From Bacteroidales bacterium (GTDB taxonomy: Bacteria > Bacteroidota > Bacteroidia > Bacteroidales > UBA6680), in contig JAOARD010000047.1 in assembly GCA_025210735.1 (NCBI GenBank), forward strand, positions 69,579 through 133,578: a DNA stretch of 64,000 bases. Reading direction: 5' to 3'. Under the pieces are notes generated by a model. The model worked only from the letters and a program-made list of their open reading frames with translations, did not search any database and was not told the origin of the DNA. Positions 1 through 6,860 of this stretch are shown here, one piece after another. The position numbers and the translations under genes are program-made. Position 1 is the stretch's first letter. Every line of letters starts with the position of its first letter.

Positions 1-384
1 ATCGTCAATAACATATACCGGGATTAATGAAAAATCAACCATTCCTGTCATGGGACTGTTTATATTCATCCCATTCCATCTAACCTGAGTATGCGATGAA
101 GCTGTTCCTCTGAACGATGCTGTTGCAAGAGCTCCTCTACCATTATTTTTTATAAACAGAGAGGTATTTTCTGACAGTAAATCTGACAGCGACATATTAA
201 TTTTCTTCATCAGAACAAGCGTATCTACCTCATCTACTCTCATTCCGGCATCTTCTTTTCTGAATATTCTCTTTGCAGATACTGTAATTTCGCTTATAGA
301 TATTATTGTATCTGAATTCTGTTGTGCCATAATAATTGATGGCACAACAGTTATAAATAAACAAACCAGACTAATATATTTCAT
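1..384 (-). CDS. TonB-dependent outer-membrane receptor, signal peptide and plug domain only (the gene runs off the left edge). It is probably the corrinoid receptor of the riboswitch-led operon.
   Basis: Absent from the ORF track because it is open at nt 1. My translation from the ATG at 384..382 (minus) gives MKYISLVCLFITVVPSIIMAQQNSDTIISISEITVSAKR...SFRGTASSHTQVRWNGMNINSPMTGMVDFSLIPVYVIDD. The 'RG..SS.T.V..NG..INSP..G..D.S.IP' block is the classic TonB-receptor plug signature. It lies on the same strand, 64 nt downstream of 449..1909. Confidence 0.8.
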   Translation of the reverse strand, partial: MKYISLVCLFITVVPSIIMAQQNSDTIISISEITVSAKRIFRKEDAGMRVDEVDTLVLMKKINMSLSDLLSENTSLFIKNNGRGALATASFRGTASSHTQVRWNGMNINSPMTGMVDFSLIPVYVIDD

Positions 385-448: not shown

Positions 449-1909
449 TTACCTCTTAATAAATTTCTCTGACCATATTACATTGTCACAATTTATCTTA
501 ACCAGATAAATTCCATTTGGTAAAGAGGATATATTTATTGGCTGATCTCTGTTATATTCAGATATATTTTTAATAACTCTTCCTGACAGATCAATTATAC
601 TTACAGATGATTTATCAACATCAATATATATAACTGAACATGAAGGGTTAGGATATACTGTAGCTTTTCGGTATCTATAACTATATACATCTGTTGGTTG
701 CTGTGTTTTATCAACAGTTACATTAATATGTGTTGACACAGTTACCTTTACATCCTGATTATCTTTAAGTTTTATAGTTGCTTTTATATCAGCATCAACA
801 GTCTGTTTTGCCACCAGCTTGCCGTTCTCTACAACAACACTGCTGTTATCTGTCTCCCATATAATATCCTTATCTGTAACTACCCGCCCTTTATAAAAAA
901 CAAAAGACTCTATATTAAATTTGTTCTTCTCTATTGTTGCAGGTAACTCTTTAACAACAATATTATACAGCTCTCCTTTAACGCTCTTATCGGGTGCTAC
1001 ATCATATGCTCCTGCAACCTCTGTTGATACTTCTCCTAACCAACCAGCATCGGCAAGTGTTCCGGTATGTACCTTAACAAAATCTATTCTGTTAAGATCA
1101 ACATATTCGCCATCTTTATTAACAGCCCAACTGATATCAAAAGAGTCTCCTCCTGAGTTCTCAACAACATTACGTGTATACGGGTTATCCGGTAAACCAT
1201 TAAATGTTCCTCGTAAAGTATTATCAGCATATCCCCACGGGCGTCCAAAACATGTAACATATGAAGGATTGGACTTATCAACATAGTCTTTAACCATTGA
1301 TCCGCTCAGTATATAATTATCTTCTCCAACATCTGAGAACATGTCTGTATCGGGATAGTATGGTTGTGAATAGAATTTATTGGCAAGTACTGCTCCGCTA
1401 TTTCCCATATTGTCTTTCCACGGAACATCTGTTGCAACATCCTTTTTAGGGTTAGTGTATGTTACACTGTAGTTATTTACAGTTGATGAAAAATGGTAAT
1501 CGCTACCTGCCAGTTCATACCATGTATCATCAGGCAAACCATTACCATTCTCATCTTTCATAACTGAAACTATTCCCGGTTCAGACCATGTTACAAGATT
1601 ATCTATCTGTGGGTTAGCAATATTCTTAAGCGGATTCCCGTATACAATAAAATCTACTCCGTAAGGGTTATCTTCATGGTTTTCAACAGGATTCTCGAAT
1701 TTAAAAACAACATAGCCACCAAATGCTCCAAGTGTGAGATGCCCCATAATACCTCCAATAATTGATTTGGCAGTCTCCGGTTGTCCCCATGCTGAGCTAT
1801 TTACAAACTGTCCGGGTCCAGGTTTATATTCCAAAACCTTATTAATATATTGTGAATGTGCTAATAAAGTTGCAAACAGGCTCGCTAAAAGCAAACAAAA
1901 TCGTCTCAT
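449..1909 (-). CDS. Secreted protein with a Por/T9SS C-terminal sorting domain, function unknown (second gene of the riboswitch-led operon).
   Basis: 486-aa ORF. SpI-type signal peptide MRRFCLLLASLFATLLAHSQ. The C-terminus VYPNPSCSVIYIDV...LPNGIYLVKINCDNVIWSEKFIKR fits the T9SS CTD pattern. The N-domain YKPGPGQFVN...GAFGGYVVFKFENPV looks conserved, but I cannot name the family with confidence. Confidence 0.7.
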   Translation of the reverse strand: MRRFCLLLASLFATLLAHSQYINKVLEYKPGPGQFVNSSAWGQPETAKSIIGGIMGHLTLGAFGGYVVFKFENPVENHEDNPYGVDFIVYGNPLKNIANPQIDNLVTWSEPGIVSVMKDENGNGLPDDTWYELAGSDYHFSSTVNNYSVTYTNPKKDVATDVPWKDNMGNSGAVLANKFYSQPYYPDTDMFSDVGEDNYILSGSMVKDYVDKSNPSYVTCFGRPWGYADNTLRGTFNGLPDNPYTRNVVENSGGDSFDISWAVNKDGEYVDLNRIDFVKVHTGTLADAGWLGEVSTEVAGAYDVAPDKSVKGELYNIVVKELPATIEKNKFNIESFVFYKGRVVTDKDIIWETDNSSVVVENGKLVAKQTVDADIKATIKLKDNQDVKVTVSTHINVTVDKTQQPTDVYSYRYRKATVYPNPSCSVIYIDVDKSSVSIIDLSGRVIKNISEYNRDQPINISSLPNGIYLVKINCDNVIWSEKFIKR

Positions 1910-2129
1910 TTTATAACTGTTTTCTGTCAGAGTATTTTTACAATACTCTGTGTTTATATCTCATTATTATATTTCTCTTTATCAGTAAAAAAGAGTTTTA
2001 ATACTCTTGGTAGTTTTTACAATAACTAAATATGGGTATGCGGCATATTATACCGCATACCCTGAACATTAAACCTTAAACACGTGGATTTTGAGATTTC
2101 GGTTTATTGTCATCCTTTGCAACCAAGGA

Positions 2130-5100
2130 CTATTGTTTTATTATTTTATTAATAGTTGTACTCTTACCTGAAATAATCTTTACAAAGTATACTCCTGACT
2201 TAAGATCTGATATATCTATAAATGAATCAGTGTTGTAGTTAAGATCTTTGTAAACAATCTTTCCGTTTATTGTATATACCGATATCTCAACGTTTTCTCT
2301 ATCAGGTACTGATACAGCAAACCTATCGTTTACCGGATTAGGGTAGATATTAACAGATAGTTCATCAGCACTGTTTATAGCTGTTGCAACTTTATTAACC
2401 TCTACGTTAAGTGTTACGGCTACAGTTTTACCATTTGATGTTGCTGTTATCTGAATTGCAGCATCTCCATATTTATCTTTTGCGAAAGCCAGAGTAAGGT
2501 TATCGCCATTAACCGTTGCTGTAACCAAATCCTCATTGCTATTTGATGTTACAGCTTTTGTTATGGCAGAGTTATCATCATCTGCATCGGTAAATACTCC
2601 GGACAGATCAATAACCTTATTGTCAGCATTCTGATTAACAACAATTTTTGATACAGATTTCTTAACAACAGGAGCCTGATCTGCTTTTACTGTAACTGAC
2701 ACCTGAGTTGTTACACTCTTTCCGTTTGATGTTGCTGTTATCTCTACTGTTGCATCGCCGCTCTTTCCTTTAGTAAACGACAGAGTTAGGTTGTTATCAA
2801 CCAGTGTTACTGTTACCAGACTCTTATTACTGTTTGATTTAACCGCTTTTGTTATTGCTGCATCATCGTTATCGGCATCGGTAAATGTATTTGTAAGGTC
2901 AATTACAACATCAGCAGCATCCTCTTTAACTGTTACAGCATCTATAGCTGTTTTTACTGTAGGAGCCTGATCTTCACCAACCGATACTGTAATGTCTGTA
3001 TCTACTGTTTTACCTCTTGATGTTGCTGTAACAGTTATTACTGCATCGCCACTATTTGATGATATCAATGATATTGTTAGCATTTTACCATTAAGTACTG
3101 CATTAACAAGCGATGTATTATTGTTTTTCTTGATAGCAACTGTTATAGCATTATCATCATCATCGGTATCGGTAAATGTATCAGACAGATCAACCTTAAT
3201 ATCTGACGATCCTATTTTTACTGTTATCGGATCAACTGCCTTTTTCACTACAGGTGCCTGATCTGCTGTAACTGTAACAGCAACTGTAGTTGTAACAGTC
3301 TTTCCGTTTGATGTTGCTGTAATATCTATATTTGCATTACCACTCTTACCATCAATAAAATCTAATGTAAGATTACTACCTGTTATAGATGCATTTACAA
3401 TTTTATCGTTACTATTAGCTGTTACAGCTTTAGTAATTGCTGCATCGTCGTCGTCAGCATCAGTAAATATATTTGTAAGATCTATTACAGTATCATCTGA
3501 ACTCTCTCTAACATTTACAGGATTTATTGCTGTTTTTACAGTTGGAGCCTTGTCTTGTTTAACTGTTACTTTCACAACTTTCTCTGTCAATACTCCATTT
3601 GAGTTAGCCTCAAACGTAACATTAACAATGCCCTCTTTTACTACATCTGGTGTAACTGTAATTACCCCATTATTAATTGTTACACTAACAACGTCAGGGG
3701 CAGATACGGATTTCACATTCAGAAGTATTGCCGCTTTATTATTATCTACATCGCTTACAACATCAATAACATTAAGTGTTCGTGCTGTGTGATCATCTCT
3801 CTCAAATACCATATCTGAGATTGATACTACCGGTGCATTAGCATCCGGGAAAACCGGAAGCGCAGGGAACCAGTAATAAGGATCAAGTGGATGCTCTCCC
3901 TCTATTGTTCCATCGGTACCCGAATATACATATAGTGTATTAGTAAGGCTGTTTGTACTCCAACCATCCTTCTTTCCTAACACATAAATACTATTGGTTA
4001 CCGGATGTATACGCATTCCTGCACCATAAAGTACCATATTGCCCGGAAGTGTGAATAGTGGTGTGTTAAGTGAATTGGCATCACCCGGTATATATTTATA
4101 TACTTTGTTTACTCCGGCAAACATTCCACCTGGAGGGCACCAGTAGATAGCATTCTCTGTATTACTTGCACATAAACTATTTGCTGTCCATGCATACCAT
4201 GGTGCCGGAATTTTTGCATGCGATGGCAAATCTATCTTCTCTACAGCAAGTGTATAAGGATCAACCTTTATTATTTTACTTCCTGCACCAATCCATACCT
4301 TACCATCTATAGTTTGCGTTAATCCTGCATATGAATCTCCGGTAATCTCTGAATGAACAGCATCAGTTTCCGGATTTATAACATATACTTTATCTTTCTT
4401 AACTGCAAAAACATACTTTGTTGTGCGTAGCATATTTCCAATCTCGCCATCAACATTCTCTATCTTAGCGCCAACAGTTTCTGTTTTTATGTTAAACAGA
4501 TATATACCTTTAGATGTACTTATATATCCTTTATCAGGAGTTACACCAACAAATGCTCTTCCGTCTGATTTCATTCCTGTTTCGCCCGGAAGAAACTCAT
4601 CATAACTGTTTTTGTGTTTTAATGTTGTTGCATCTGCAATAACCATACGTGGCTGTTGCTTAGACATAAAGTAGAAGTTTCCTCCGTATATTGTTCCAAA
4701 CTGTGTTGTTACACCAAACTTTTTATCATGATTCTCCTGACGATAAGCTCTGTATATAAACTTATTATCGTTAGTAAAGTAGTTTACAGATCCCAGATCG
4801 TGTCCGAACCAATCCTCATTAACAATAAATACACCATTGCTATAGTTTACATCTCTGAGTTCAACCTTAAACTTATCAGTAACCTCTTTTGAATTGGCTG
4901 TTGCTTTAACTGTTATCTCAGTCTCTCCTGCCATATCGGCACTGTAATCAATTGTAAGCGTACTGTTTTTTACAGATGTTGTTGCCAGTGCACTATTTGT
5001 ATTTCCTGATACCTCAAATGTAATATCATCGCCATCTGTATCTTTAAAGTGATTAAGCAGACTAATTGTTGTTGATTTAGGATTCTTTGGTAAACAGATA

Positions 5101-6419
5101 TCATTTATCTGCTCCTTAACAACCGGATCATTATCAGCCCTTACATCTACACTAAACTGAGCTGAAGCCTTTTTACCACAAGATACAGCATCAATCTTAA
5201 TATCAGCCAATCCGCTTTTACCTTCTGCAAAAGACATCTCAAGCACACCACTATTTATAGATGTAGTAACAAGCTCTGTATTGCTATTAGAAACAACCTT
5301 ATACATTAAGTTATCTCCGTCAGGATCGTTAAAATGGTTGCTCAGTGTAATATTGTGTGGCACACCAGATATTGCACTCTGATTAGTAATAGCACTTGCA
5401 ATTACCGGACTTTTATCTGTTTTTGCCGGTACTGCTATCGACTCATCCGGGCCTACATTACTTCCGTAATCTCCAACCTTTGAGAAGTTCCATCCATCAT
5501 GACAACCATGAGTAAGATCTCTGCCTGATGCTCCAACGGGAGAGAATGCCCACTCTTCAGTTGCAGAAGCTTTTATATAGAATGCCCAGAAACCATTCAT
5601 CCAGCCACTATTCCAGTAATCTGTAGGATCAATAGGTGTCCAGCCATCAAAGTTATACTGATCAAGCACTATTATTCCCTGCTCATTTACCATTGCTACT
5701 TTATCCTCCTTATTTACTCCAAGCGGTCCTGTTTTATTATAGTCATAACCATAACCACCAAATGCTGTTCCGTACTGAGTCCCCGTAATTGCCATCAGAT
5801 AAAAACGGTAATCATCTTTAGCTAGCGTTAATAACATCTGCTCACTTGTTGATGTTCCGTCCCAACGATATCCCCAGAATATAGGCTTATCATGATCCTT
5901 CCACTTAATGGTTATCATAGCCTGATTTCCACCATTACCTGTCCAGAATTCAACGCTCTCCATGTCACTGTTTATAGTAACATTAAATGTCTTTTGCTTT
6001 ACAACACCTCCTTTATCTGATTTTATAACCAAAACCACAGGATCTGAAGTAAAGTTTGCAGCCACATATTGCAGGCTCATTTTAGCACCATTTATTGTTG
6101 GAGTAAGTGCAGAGTTGTTGCTGTTAGATACTACAGAAAATGTAAAGTCTGAAACATTATCGCCTTCAGCACAAAAATATGGCTCTAATGATATTAACTC
6201 TGTTGTAAGGTCGTTTACAAGATGTAATGCAATCTCACTCTCTGTTACCGGTGCCGATTTATAACTTTCCGGTCTCTGCTTAAAGGTAAGAGGAGTTTCT
6301 ACCGATCTGCTATTAACAGGCCAGTGCCCCTGTTTTTTTGTACCAAATGGTACATTTTGAGCGTACAAACCCAATGTGCAACACAAAAATGTTACAATAA
6401 TTAAGTACATTTGTCTCAT
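2130..6419 (-). CDS. Giant mosaic cell-surface protein with about eight Ig/cadherin-like modules, a central beta-propeller-like segment and a T9SS C-terminal sorting domain (first gene after the cobalamin riboswitch).
   Basis: 1429-aa ORF. Signal peptide MRQMYLIIVTFLCCTLGLYAQ. Recurrent ~95-aa modules, e.g. 'VIDLTNIFTDADDDDAAITKAV..NSN...V.......LTL.F..GKSG.A.I.ITATSNGK.V'. A central segment (nt 3845..4838), 'FIVNEDWFGHDLGSVNYF...KVYVINPETDAV...IYVLGKKDGW', resembles YncE/DUF5074-type propellers from memory. The C-terminus NIYPNPVNDRFAVSV...SGVYFVKIISGKSTTINKIIKQ is a T9SS CTD. Confidence 0.85.
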   Translation of the reverse strand: MRQMYLIIVTFLCCTLGLYAQNVPFGTKKQGHWPVNSRSVETPLTFKQRPESYKSAPVTESEIALHLVNDLTTELISLEPYFCAEGDNVSDFTFSVVSNSNNSALTPTINGAKMSLQYVAANFTSDPVVLVIKSDKGGVVKQKTFNVTINSDMESVEFWTGNGGNQAMITIKWKDHDKPIFWGYRWDGTSTSEQMLLTLAKDDYRFYLMAITGTQYGTAFGGYGYDYNKTGPLGVNKEDKVAMVNEQGIIVLDQYNFDGWTPIDPTDYWNSGWMNGFWAFYIKASATEEWAFSPVGASGRDLTHGCHDGWNFSKVGDYGSNVGPDESIAVPAKTDKSPVIASAITNQSAISGVPHNITLSNHFNDPDGDNLMYKVVSNSNTELVTTSINSGVLEMSFAEGKSGLADIKIDAVSCGKKASAQFSVDVRADNDPVVKEQINDICLPKNPKSTTISLLNHFKDTDGDDITFEVSGNTNSALATTSVKNSTLTIDYSADMAGETEITVKATANSKEVTDKFKVELRDVNYSNGVFIVNEDWFGHDLGSVNYFTNDNKFIYRAYRQENHDKKFGVTTQFGTIYGGNFYFMSKQQPRMVIADATTLKHKNSYDEFLPGETGMKSDGRAFVGVTPDKGYISTSKGIYLFNIKTETVGAKIENVDGEIGNMLRTTKYVFAVKKDKVYVINPETDAVHSEITGDSYAGLTQTIDGKVWIGAGSKIIKVDPYTLAVEKIDLPSHAKIPAPWYAWTANSLCASNTENAIYWCPPGGMFAGVNKVYKYIPGDANSLNTPLFTLPGNMVLYGAGMRIHPVTNSIYVLGKKDGWSTNSLTNTLYVYSGTDGTIEGEHPLDPYYWFPALPVFPDANAPVVSISDMVFERDDHTARTLNVIDVVSDVDNNKAAILLNVKSVSAPDVVSVTINNGVITVTPDVVKEGIVNVTFEANSNGVLTEKVVKVTVKQDKAPTVKTAINPVNVRESSDDTVIDLTNIFTDADDDDAAITKAVTANSNDKIVNASITGSNLTLDFIDGKSGNANIDITATSNGKTVTTTVAVTVTADQAPVVKKAVDPITVKIGSSDIKVDLSDTFTDTDDDDNAITVAIKKNNNTSLVNAVLNGKMLTISLISSNSGDAVITVTATSRGKTVDTDITVSVGEDQAPTVKTAIDAVTVKEDAADVVIDLTNTFTDADNDDAAITKAVKSNSNKSLVTVTLVDNNLTLSFTKGKSGDATVEITATSNGKSVTTQVSVTVKADQAPVVKKSVSKIVVNQNADNKVIDLSGVFTDADDDNSAITKAVTSNSNEDLVTATVNGDNLTLAFAKDKYGDAAIQITATSNGKTVAVTLNVEVNKVATAINSADELSVNIYPNPVNDRFAVSVPDRENVEISVYTINGKIVYKDLNYNTDSFIDISDLKSGVYFVKIISGKSTTINKIIKQ
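2395..3555 (-). repeat. Four tandem ~288-bp coding repeats (Ig/cadherin-like modules) inside the 1429-aa gene.
   Basis: The protein shows four consecutive units: '(A/D)QAP(T/V)VK(T/K)A(I/V).....V......(V/I).(I/V)DL(T/S)..FTD.D(D/N)D.(A/N)AIT.A......' ... 'TATS(N/R)GK(T/S)V'. The DNA repeats strings such as gcatcatcgtcatc / ccgtttgatgttgctgt at about 290-nt spacing. Confidence 0.8.
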
Positions 6420-6599: not shown

Positions 6600-6826
6600 A
6601 AGGTATAACAAAACACCGTACCGATCAGCTACCCGTTCTCCGCAGGCTGCAAAACCTATAATCATCTGGCAGGTCTTCTGACTTATTCCGAATACTGAGC
6701 CTTCCCGTTATATCACAGTGGCGCATATTTCAGTACTCATGATTACATTAGTAACCGGAACTTACAGCAGCGGGAACTGTTGCCGACTCTCACGACATTC
6801 CCTTTTAATCCAGTTTCAACAGTTAA
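6600..6826 (-). promoter_or_regulatory. Cobalamin (adenosylcobalamin/B12) riboswitch aptamer.
   Basis: The minus strand reads AAAAGGGAAUGUCGUGAGAGUCGGCAACAGUUCCCGCUGCUGUAA ... GCGCCACUGUGAUAUAACGGGAAGGCUC ... AAGUCAGAAGACCUGCC. These are the three conserved blocks of the B12 element: GGGAA..GGUG.AA..C...CCCGC..CUGUAA, then GCCACUG..GGGAAGGC, then the B12 box AGUCAG.AGACCUGCC (plus-strand 6668..6683). It sits about 180 nt upstream of the 6419 start codon on the same strand. Confidence 0.9.
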
Positions 6827-6852
6827 TTGAACAATGAAACCAAATGACGACG

Positions 6853-6860
6853 CAAATATA
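6853..6860 (-). promoter_or_regulatory. Candidate Bacteroidetes -7 promoter box (TAnnTTTG) for the riboswitch-led operon.
   Basis: Plus-strand caaatata equals minus-strand TATATTTG, about 27 nt upstream of the first conserved aptamer block. Confidence 0.45.

Follow-up and report, generated by a model that had tools for sequence, protein, structure and literature searches.

A secreted Bacteroidales protein behind a cobalamin riboswitch carries two candidate corrinoid-binding heads among immunoglobulin-like modules

The question raised by this locus is what a bacterium would gain from a secreted protein of 1429 amino acids (aa) in which two unlike globular segments are set among immunoglobulin (Ig)-like repeats. 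The gene for it, here called the giant gene, lies in a stretch of 64,000 nucleotides (nt) of DNA from a Bacteroidales bacterium (assembly GCA_025210735.1, contig JAOARD010000047.1, positions 69,579 to 133,578), referred to below as the window. An earlier, sequence-only reading had taken the two segments for putative capture domains serving vitamin piracy. Microbial communities of the gut and the environment are shaped by competition for vitamin B12 and other corrinoids, and the giant protein very likely belongs to B12 acquisition. Our reading, to which we assign a probability of roughly two in three, is that it is a surface-displayed scavenger of B12 (corrinoids) made under B12 scarcity, with two candidate binding heads from which the ligand would be relayed inward.

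The idea of vitamin piracy gains independent support from both sides of the gene, corrinoid binding itself being a prediction. A cobalamin riboswitch aptamer (Rfam RF00174) is present in the 5' leader, on the same strand as the giant gene. The match is full length (model positions 1-189 of 189), scores 91.6 bits against a gathering threshold of 31.5 (E = 2.1e-21) and is the sole Rfam match within the window. Downstream of the giant gene, again on the same strand, there is a btuH-like gene and then a btuB-like gene. Residues 18-303 of the 486-aa product of the first match two entries of the Protein Data Bank (PDB), 8BLW_B (E = 1.7e-42) and 7BIZ_A, which is BtuH2 with cyanocobalamin (CNCbl; E = 7.4e-37). 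The part of the BtuB-like protein encoded in the window matches BtuB2 of Bacteroides thetaiotaomicron with E = 2.7e-32 (phmmer), and the full-length 674-aa copy in locus L003 does so with E = 4.5e-126.

The protein itself consists, in order, of a signal peptide, one Ig module, a Trp/Gly-rich domain which we call the WG domain, two Ig modules, a beta-propeller-type domain, five Ig modules and a C-terminal sorting domain (CTD) of the type IX secretion system (T9SS). This mosaic had been read from the translation beforehand, and it is confirmed by Pfam, by NCBIfam and by a hidden Markov model (HMM) built from the repeat modules, which finds eight copies grouped 1 + 2 + 5. The limits then given for the two globular segments also hold: nt 5480..5958 (aa 155-314) coincides with the WG domain as delimited by its homologues (aa ~153-313), and nt 3845..4838 (aa 528-859) with a Pfam DUF5074 match at aa 528-858. 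The repeat modules are of the bacterial Ig/cadherin-like type (Pfam Big_9, 28.4 bits against a cut-off of 23.6; Cadherin_5 is matched too), and the last four modules of the stalk share 49-65% pairwise identity. The CTD is of type A, with 56.5 bits against 27 for PF18962 (aa 1358-1427) and 53 bits against 23 for TIGR04183. No canonical lipobox was found in the N-terminus on reading the translation. The module layout is no chance pattern. An exact-sequence look-up of the protein returned no record; a 98% identical copy of the gene and locus is found in a metagenome-assembled genome (MAG) of Bacteroidales bacterium UBA6680 (contig DKJY01000125.1).

The propeller had been likened to DUF5074 proteins from its sequence, and the likeness proves to extend over the whole family profile (PF16819, positions 1-353 of 353, E = 1.1e-101, 340.8 bits against a gathering threshold of 27.2). 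The same Pfam family also takes in BtuG2, which scores 73.6 bits. The nearest solved relative, found by phmmer against the PDB, is 9S6C, with E = 8.6e-13 over aa 527-857. According to a 2026 review, 9S6C is BtuK1 (BT_1486) with bound CNCbl; BtuK1 is a surface lipoprotein composed of a PKD domain and a propeller, and its affinity for CNCbl is in the nM to pM range (PMC13616437). The contacts were mapped by taking the residue number of the review as the index in the 9S6C chain plus 12. The window propeller agrees with BtuK1 at six of the eight contact positions (E23, W25, H28, T60, Q62 and K76), and its binding loop, NEDWFGHDLGS, has the same length as the NEGWFGHGSGS of BtuK1. Among 51 propellers fused to WG domains, these contact positions are conserved in 38-49. 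The review names residues 62 and 102 of BtuK1 as Asn and chain A of 9S6C reads Gln at both; either PMC13616437 has a slip in its numbering or naming, or the count made here is wrong.

From these comparisons the window propeller probably binds a corrinoid. The alternative is that it is a non-binding paralogue of the BtuK2 type, capture being left to the WG domain and BtuH. BtuK2 is similar to BtuK1 in sequence yet does not bind B12, and its equivalent loop is shortened (PMC13616437). The remaining two contact positions of the window propeller also count against binding, since E77 is replaced by Q and position 102 by D, the alignment being uncertain at 102. However, the loop that is shortened in BtuK2 is of full length here, six contacts are unchanged, and the window propeller recovers BtuK1 but not BtuK2 (4R5O) from the PDB at E <= 1 with phmmer. 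A non-binding propeller therefore seems improbable. A role as the BtuG lid of BtuB was rejected. Similarity to BtuG2, the sequence of which was taken from a gut metagenome contig, is weak (25% identity over 181 aa, E = 8e-6), and relatives encode their own BtuG-like protein of 388-421 aa in a separate gene after btuB, so the giant protein is not the lid. With its closeness to BtuK1, the propeller is therefore filed as DUF5074, BtuK1-like.

The WG domain is not so readily placed. No NCBIfam model matches it, and neither phmmer nor a 37-sequence profile gave a significant match in the PDB; the best sequence matches there, a viral capsid protein (E = 0.014) and a phage nozzle protein (0.05), were discarded as chance. 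A word-indexed search with the single sequence yielded just one relative, and an exhaustive phmmer search over 1.84 billion cluster representatives was needed to reveal the family, which comprises 795 clusters (50% identity) at E <= 1e-3 and 387 at E <= 1e-10. With a length of about 165 aa, the domain usually follows a signal peptide directly. Where the sources name such proteins at all, it is as "hypothetical protein" or by reference to a PEP-CTERM anchor only. Near-invariant positions in the family alignment include W159, G161, G163, W173, G183, Y184, R205, G222, G224, D226, D258, D267, W278 and G296. Among the top 150 representatives a DUF5074 propeller follows the WG domain in 52, a T9SS CTD is present in 32 and a BtuH domain in one; BspA-type leucine-rich repeat (LRR) arrays, Big_2 arrays and DUF4988 are further partners. 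The combination of two capture domains, thought at first to be an unusual design, is thus not rare, and BtuGH is a known fusion of two binders.

The structural model of the WG domain is more informative. AF2, given aa 147-330 and 28 sequences, returned a model with a pLDDT of 88.9 and a predicted TM score (pTM) of 0.86. When the PDB was searched with this model using Foldseek, ranks 1-17 were all intrinsic factor, transcobalamin, haptocorrin or the DUF4430 protein 3U7Z, and they included the isolated transcobalamin beta-domains 5NO0 and 5NP4. The probabilities of these 17 were 0.91-1.0, with TM scores of 0.64-0.71 when normalised to the isolated beta-domains, and from rank 18 onward the probability did not exceed 0.06. 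For the predicted model, a ranking so confined to one family cannot be chance. Two strands come first in the model; then follow a helix (46-56), a hairpin (60-68/71-79) and further strands. A helix with an inserted beta-hairpin is what defines the transcobalamin-like clade of the SLBB superfamily (PMC1796856); the modelled WG domain has the helix followed by the hairpin, along with its similarity to transcobalamin, intrinsic factor and haptocorrin. The isolated beta-domain of transcobalamin binds CNCbl and cobinamide by itself (Bloch et al. 2017).

A second line of evidence for this placement comes from short relatives, which are T9SS proteins built of tandem units of about 115 aa. The N-terminal half of each unit bears the WG signature FWVGxGxN...WGYRF, and the C-terminal half scores above the Pfam gathering threshold for DUF4430 (57.6 bits in protein P0038, 57.8 in P0103 and 47.6 in P0151). 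When the profile of the long-form WG domain was aligned with that of 67 short units by hhalign, columns 1-163 paired with columns 1-112, over both halves, with a probability of 99.8% (E = 1e-27). Because of this bridge we regard the WG domain as a DUF4430/transcobalamin-beta-like domain in a long form, enlarged by an insertion of some 50 aa. The resemblance to DUF4430 suspected in the sequence-only reading thus stands by way of Foldseek and the hhalign bridge; a direct Pfam match to DUF4430 did not materialise. Taken together, the profile and structure searches led to no unrelated family for either segment, the WG model returning only B12-carrier beta-domains and DUF4430 in its first 17 ranks and the propeller being BtuK1-like.

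A tie of the WG domain to B12 is seen in the company that WG genes keep. A cobalamin riboswitch lies upstream, on the same strand, in 13 of the 14 loci that could be evaluated. Among the Bacteroidota these are the window with L003, and L004, L015, L025, L026, L036 and L048; two further loci, L035 and L172, were left out of the count, as their sequences begin inside btuB, and the WG gene there sits in the btuB operon. Outside the Bacteroidota, where the WG domain was the sole criterion for choosing a locus, the riboswitch is present in six of seven (L001; L046, from Desulfobacca acetoxidans; L047, from Kiritimatiellota; L169, L170 and L171), the only evaluable locus lacking it being L045 (Armatimonadota). 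The gene order in Bacteroidales relatives is btuB, btuG, btuH and the WG-propeller gene, and in Dysgonomonas hofstadii a lipoprotein with a WG domain alone (P0153) is encoded in a btuB-type operon of the Bacteroidales kind.

This linkage bears directly on the possibility that the giant protein is a general T9SS adhesin or surface structural protein, with heads for non-corrinoid ligands such as heme or another tetrapyrrole, or glycans from host or diet. A long series of Ig/cadherin repeats that ends in a CTD is typical of T9SS adhesins, and in some WG proteins BspA-type LRR or Big_2 arrays replace the propeller. The term "transcobalamin-like" also occurs in a preprint about an ECF-like heme uptake system of Lactobacillus sakei. 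Against such a role stand the cobalamin riboswitch, which lies immediately 5' of the giant gene and is present in 13 of the 14 evaluable loci, the adjoining BtuH and BtuB genes and the conservation of the B12-contact residues of BtuK1, and we consider an adhesin very improbable.

It is harder to decide whether the WG domain itself takes hold of a corrinoid, and most of the observations that weigh against the reading as a two-headed scavenger concern this domain. Its segment (aa 152-335) has no Pfam match even at E <= 10, DUF4430 (PF14478) included. The individual Foldseek matches have weak E-values (0.014-0.14, none below 1e-3), and TM scores normalised to the WG query are just 0.35-0.46. The tail motif picked out in the sequence-only reading is indeed the part that aligns with the DUF4430 core, and in the expected register, with a significance that is weak when the C-terminal part is taken alone (P = 2.6e-4). 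About 50 residues form an insertion which has no counterpart in transcobalamin and is unique to the long form. The SLBB superfamily also contains sugar (polysaccharide-export) and DNA binders (PMC1796856). Since btu operons include proteins that do not bind B12 in vitro, namely BtuK2 and BtuL, membership of an operon is no proof of binding. Two further points concern the locus: no btuG gene was seen inside the window, and there is a strong hairpin between the giant gene and the btuH and btuB genes, so co-transcription of the three is an assumption.

Most of these points would suit an alternative in which only the propeller and the neighbouring BtuH bind corrinoid and the WG domain is an accessory module, for docking to BtuG/BtuB or BtuH, for anchoring to glycan or capsule, or for targeting to vesicles. 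The riboswitch linkage would then simply reflect membership in the B12 machinery. In its favour, btu operons include the non-binding BtuL and BtuK2; polysaccharide-export and DNA-binding relatives exist within the superfamily; and the Pfam DUF4430 model misses the WG domain, with its insertion. Against it, proteins made up of a signal peptide, a WG domain and an anchor are among the few genes behind the riboswitch in several loci. Examples are P0174, directly behind the aptamer in L047, P0153 in Dysgonomonas, and P0001. Some such loci come from phyla where neither BtuB nor BtuG nor a propeller was seen in the vicinity. In addition, the structural neighbours of the model are solely B12 carriers and not the sugar- or DNA-binding SLBB clades, and the hairpin of the transcobalamin clade is present in it. 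A purely accessory WG domain is on balance unlikely, and the evidence leans slightly towards the WG domain being a corrinoid binder in its own right.

If the giant protein is the two-headed scavenger that we favour, it could work as follows. The riboswitch would keep the gene off while intracellular corrinoid is plentiful; the aptamer is observed and the mode of control is what we infer from it. The protein would be exported by Sec and then by the T9SS, after which the CTD would be removed and the new C-terminus attached to surface lipopolysaccharide, by analogy with other cargo carrying type A CTDs. The five C-terminal Ig/cadherin-like modules would form a stalk that holds the BtuK1-like propeller off the membrane, with the WG domain farther out, beyond two more Ig modules. 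The propeller would bind corrinoid on the face of the NEDWFGH loop, as BtuK1 does, and the WG domain via its beta-grasp face and hairpin, as the transcobalamin beta-domain does. The next recipient of ligand from both heads might be the BtuH-type protein encoded alongside, itself anchored by way of the T9SS, and after it BtuB, which presumably has a BtuG lid encoded past the window edge.

The features of the locus are collected in Table 1. The genes on the other side of the giant gene are divergently transcribed and seemingly unrelated (PTPS, DUF2147, nitroreductase, HAD). The Rfam scan of the window gave no second riboswitch in the 220 nt that separate the giant gene from the btuH-like gene; the hairpin located there is possibly a partial terminator or an RNA-processing site. 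A scan for sigma-70 promoters gave 34 matches compared to 33.3 expected from shuffled sequence, and therefore no promoter is claimed.

Table 1. Features of the giant gene and its surroundings, in window coordinates.
Feature	Position	Strand	Basis
Cobalamin riboswitch aptamer, ~230 nt 5' of the start codon of the giant gene	6651..6859	-	Rfam RF00174
Giant gene, 1429-aa secreted multidomain protein (stop codon included)	2130..6419	-	Open reading frame list and translation
Signal peptide, aa 1-20 (MRQMYLIIVTFLCCTLGLYA, followed by Q)	6360..6419	-	Translation; predicted cleavage site
Ig/cadherin-like module 1, divergent (aa 54-149)	5973..6260	-	HMM from six clear modules, iE 2.1e-7
WG domain (Trp/Gly-rich, aa ~153-315), candidate corrinoid-binding head 1	5475..5963	-	Homologue boundaries; AF2/Foldseek; hhalign
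Ig/cadherin-like modules 2 and 3 (aa 335-426, 429-521)	4857..5417	-	Big_9 28.4 bits, Cadherin_5; repeat HMM iE 2e-34, 2e-39
DUF5074 seven-bladed-propeller-type domain (aa 527-858), BtuK1-like, candidate corrinoid-binding head 2	3846..4841	-	PF16819; 9S6C
Five Ig/cadherin-like modules, putative membrane-proximal stalk (aa 860-953, 956-1050, 1053-1147, 1150-1244, 1247-1341)	2397..3842	-	Repeat HMM
T9SS type A C-terminal sorting domain (aa 1356-1429)	2133..2354	-	PF18962, TIGR04183
13-bp G+C-rich hairpin (GGGTATGCGGTAT-AAT-ATGCCGCATACCC) in the spacer between the giant and btuH-like genes	2034..2062	-	Consensus scan only
Gene for BtuH-type B12-binding protein, 486 aa, with its own T9SS sorting domain	449..1909	-	PDB matches; PF18962 at aa 418-484
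BtuB-like TonB-dependent receptor, 5' part (signal peptide and plug), running past the window edge	1..384	-	Translation

Several variants of the WG family deserve mention. The short relatives P0151, P0103 and P0038 each consist of three or four of the ~115-aa units in tandem (in P0151, for example, aa 29-143, 171-290 and 313-432), and such proteins could be multivalent corrinoid binders. In P0009 and P0010 a long array of BspA-type LRR_5 repeats stands in place of the propeller. BtuL is a btu-operon protein linked to vesicle release, and its translation has, by eye, an LRR-like look; with LRR arrays standing beside WG domains as well, there is a hint that an LRR partner recurs in B12 loci. Identity of the WG domain with BtuL (BT_1955) was itself considered and rejected, as the WG profile has no match at E <= 10 in locus 2 of B. 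thetaiotaomicron, which was reached through a published primer sequence. Near-matches of the BT1955 primer in L022 and L023 are spurious and lie inside btuB.

Some of the loci have features of their own. The D. acetoxidans locus L046 (CP002629) contains tandem pairs of a cobalamin and a cyclic di-GMP-I riboswitch (1571-1747/1923-1998, 3803-3979/4155-4230 and 7259-7393/7600-7675), the second about 180-210 nt behind the first, and a fourth cyclic di-GMP-I match at 1169-1247. Each pair precedes a small operon for WG-domain and weakly BtuH-like secreted proteins, and joint control of a surface-protein operon by B12 and cyclic di-GMP, if that is what the arrangement signifies, looks unusual. In four other loci the WG gene is preceded by a gene of the prepilin-type N_methyl/SBP_bac_10 (DUF1559-like) kind (L001, 7165-8876; L169, 4154-5975; L170, 3424-5582; L045, 5258-6639). 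The WG proteins there often have a PEP-CTERM-type tail. In three of the four a cobalamin riboswitch precedes the pair; a weakly BtuH-like gene comes after the pair in L001, and an extra gene of 284 aa separates its two members in L170. Such an arrangement points to a B12-regulated surface system, as yet uncharacterised, in bacteria other than Bacteroidota. Finally, the best non-identical relative of the giant gene in a genome scan is an open reading frame at 7481-12985 of L004 (JBGRPZ010000048.1), the best segment being 45% identical. It spans 1835 codons from stop to stop, with the WG domain at position 1043, a DUF5074 propeller and a cobalamin riboswitch upstream. The contig is labelled as a Hyphomicrobiales MAG and, as its gene content does not fit an alphaproteobacterial bin, is probably mis-binned.

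A wider proposal can be made from the family as a whole. The WG domain would represent a new and widespread class of bacterial extracellular corrinoid-binding domain, a long-form relative of the transcobalamin and intrinsic factor beta-domain that has been missed by domain libraries and is used behind cobalamin riboswitches, serving as the outermost part of a two-head catcher in Bacteroidales and as the first identified surface catcher in phyla without BtuG-type lids. We regard the evidence for and against this proposal as evenly balanced. If it is true, a T9SS-anchored "fishing line" with two heads feeds BtuH and then BtuG/BtuB in Bacteroidales, and in the phyla without such lids the WG domain works with riboswitch-controlled pseudopilin-like (N_methyl/DUF1559) and PEP-CTERM proteins. 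The WG domain would then be a candidate fifth class of binder, similar in fold to the beta-domain of the B12 carriers of humans, occurring in hundreds of clusters from several phyla and lying outside Pfam and NCBIfam. To our knowledge, the surface binders recognised in Bacteroides (BtuG, BtuH, BtuJ and BtuK) all come from one model species and are all lipoproteins. A C-terminally anchored T9SS cargo with two heads on an Ig stalk would be a different mode of display.

The B. thetaiotaomicron relay of BtuB, BtuG, BtuH, BtuJ, BtuK and BtuL is well described, and the giant protein can be compared with several of its members. It resembles BtuK1 in its DUF5074 propeller, in the NE(G/D)WFGH loop, in most of the contact residues, in the Ig/PKD-type modules that precede the propeller and in its riboswitch-controlled btu locus. 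BtuK1, however, is a small lipoprotein that is lipidated at its N-terminus and contains one PKD domain, whereas the window propeller lies mid-chain in a T9SS cargo that has its anchor at the C-terminus and includes eight Ig modules and another candidate binding domain. Sequence identity between the two propellers is modest, and they differ at E77 and position 102. As for the BtuG2 and BtuG3 lids, BtuG likewise comes under DUF5074 and works with BtuB. BtuGH (BT_1490) is an earlier case of a surface protein that combines two different B12-binding domains; in the window the fusion partner of the propeller is a transcobalamin-beta-like domain and not a BtuH domain. BtuH2 (BT_1956, 7BIZ) and BtuJ (DUF4465, 9I2L) are comparable as surface corrinoid binders of the B12 relay, and the neighbouring gene is clearly of the BtuH type, although its product has a T9SS CTD where BtuH2 has a lipid anchor. 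Neither head of the giant protein is a BtuH or BtuJ, there being no sequence match to either and no match to PF14717 (DUF4465) in the 1429 aa.

The relatives of the WG domain lie further afield. It shares with the beta-domains of transcobalamin, intrinsic factor and haptocorrin the fold found by Foldseek and the helix followed by a beta-hairpin insert, but it lacks an alpha/alpha-toroid partner domain. With DUF4430 it shares the C-terminal W-x-Y ... L-x-x-G-x-x-D-x-W motif, which aligns with the DUF4430 core; it differs in length (165 aa compared to about 100-115 aa), in its distinctive N-terminal FWxGxGxN...WGYRW and in being missed by the DUF4430 HMM. Searches of the literature on DUF5074, DUF4430 and "transcobalamin-like" proteins gave no account of the long-form WG family, of its linkage to riboswitches or of its fusion to BtuK-like propellers. 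Burroughs et al. predicted in 2007 that secreted bacterial transcobalamin-like SLBB proteins, some of them fused to Ig or propeller domains, are B12 receptors (PMC1796856). The WG proteins resemble that clade in being secreted or located at the surface and in occurring fused to Ig and propeller domains. The proteins reported in 2007 came mainly from Firmicutes and archaea and were linked to CbiO/CbiQ transporter genes, whereas WG domains are found in Bacteroidota, Kiritimatiellota, Armatimonadota and Desulfobacca. If the WG domain does bind corrinoids, it connects the BtuB system of the Bacteroidota with the bacterial transcobalamin-like B12 receptors predicted in 2007.

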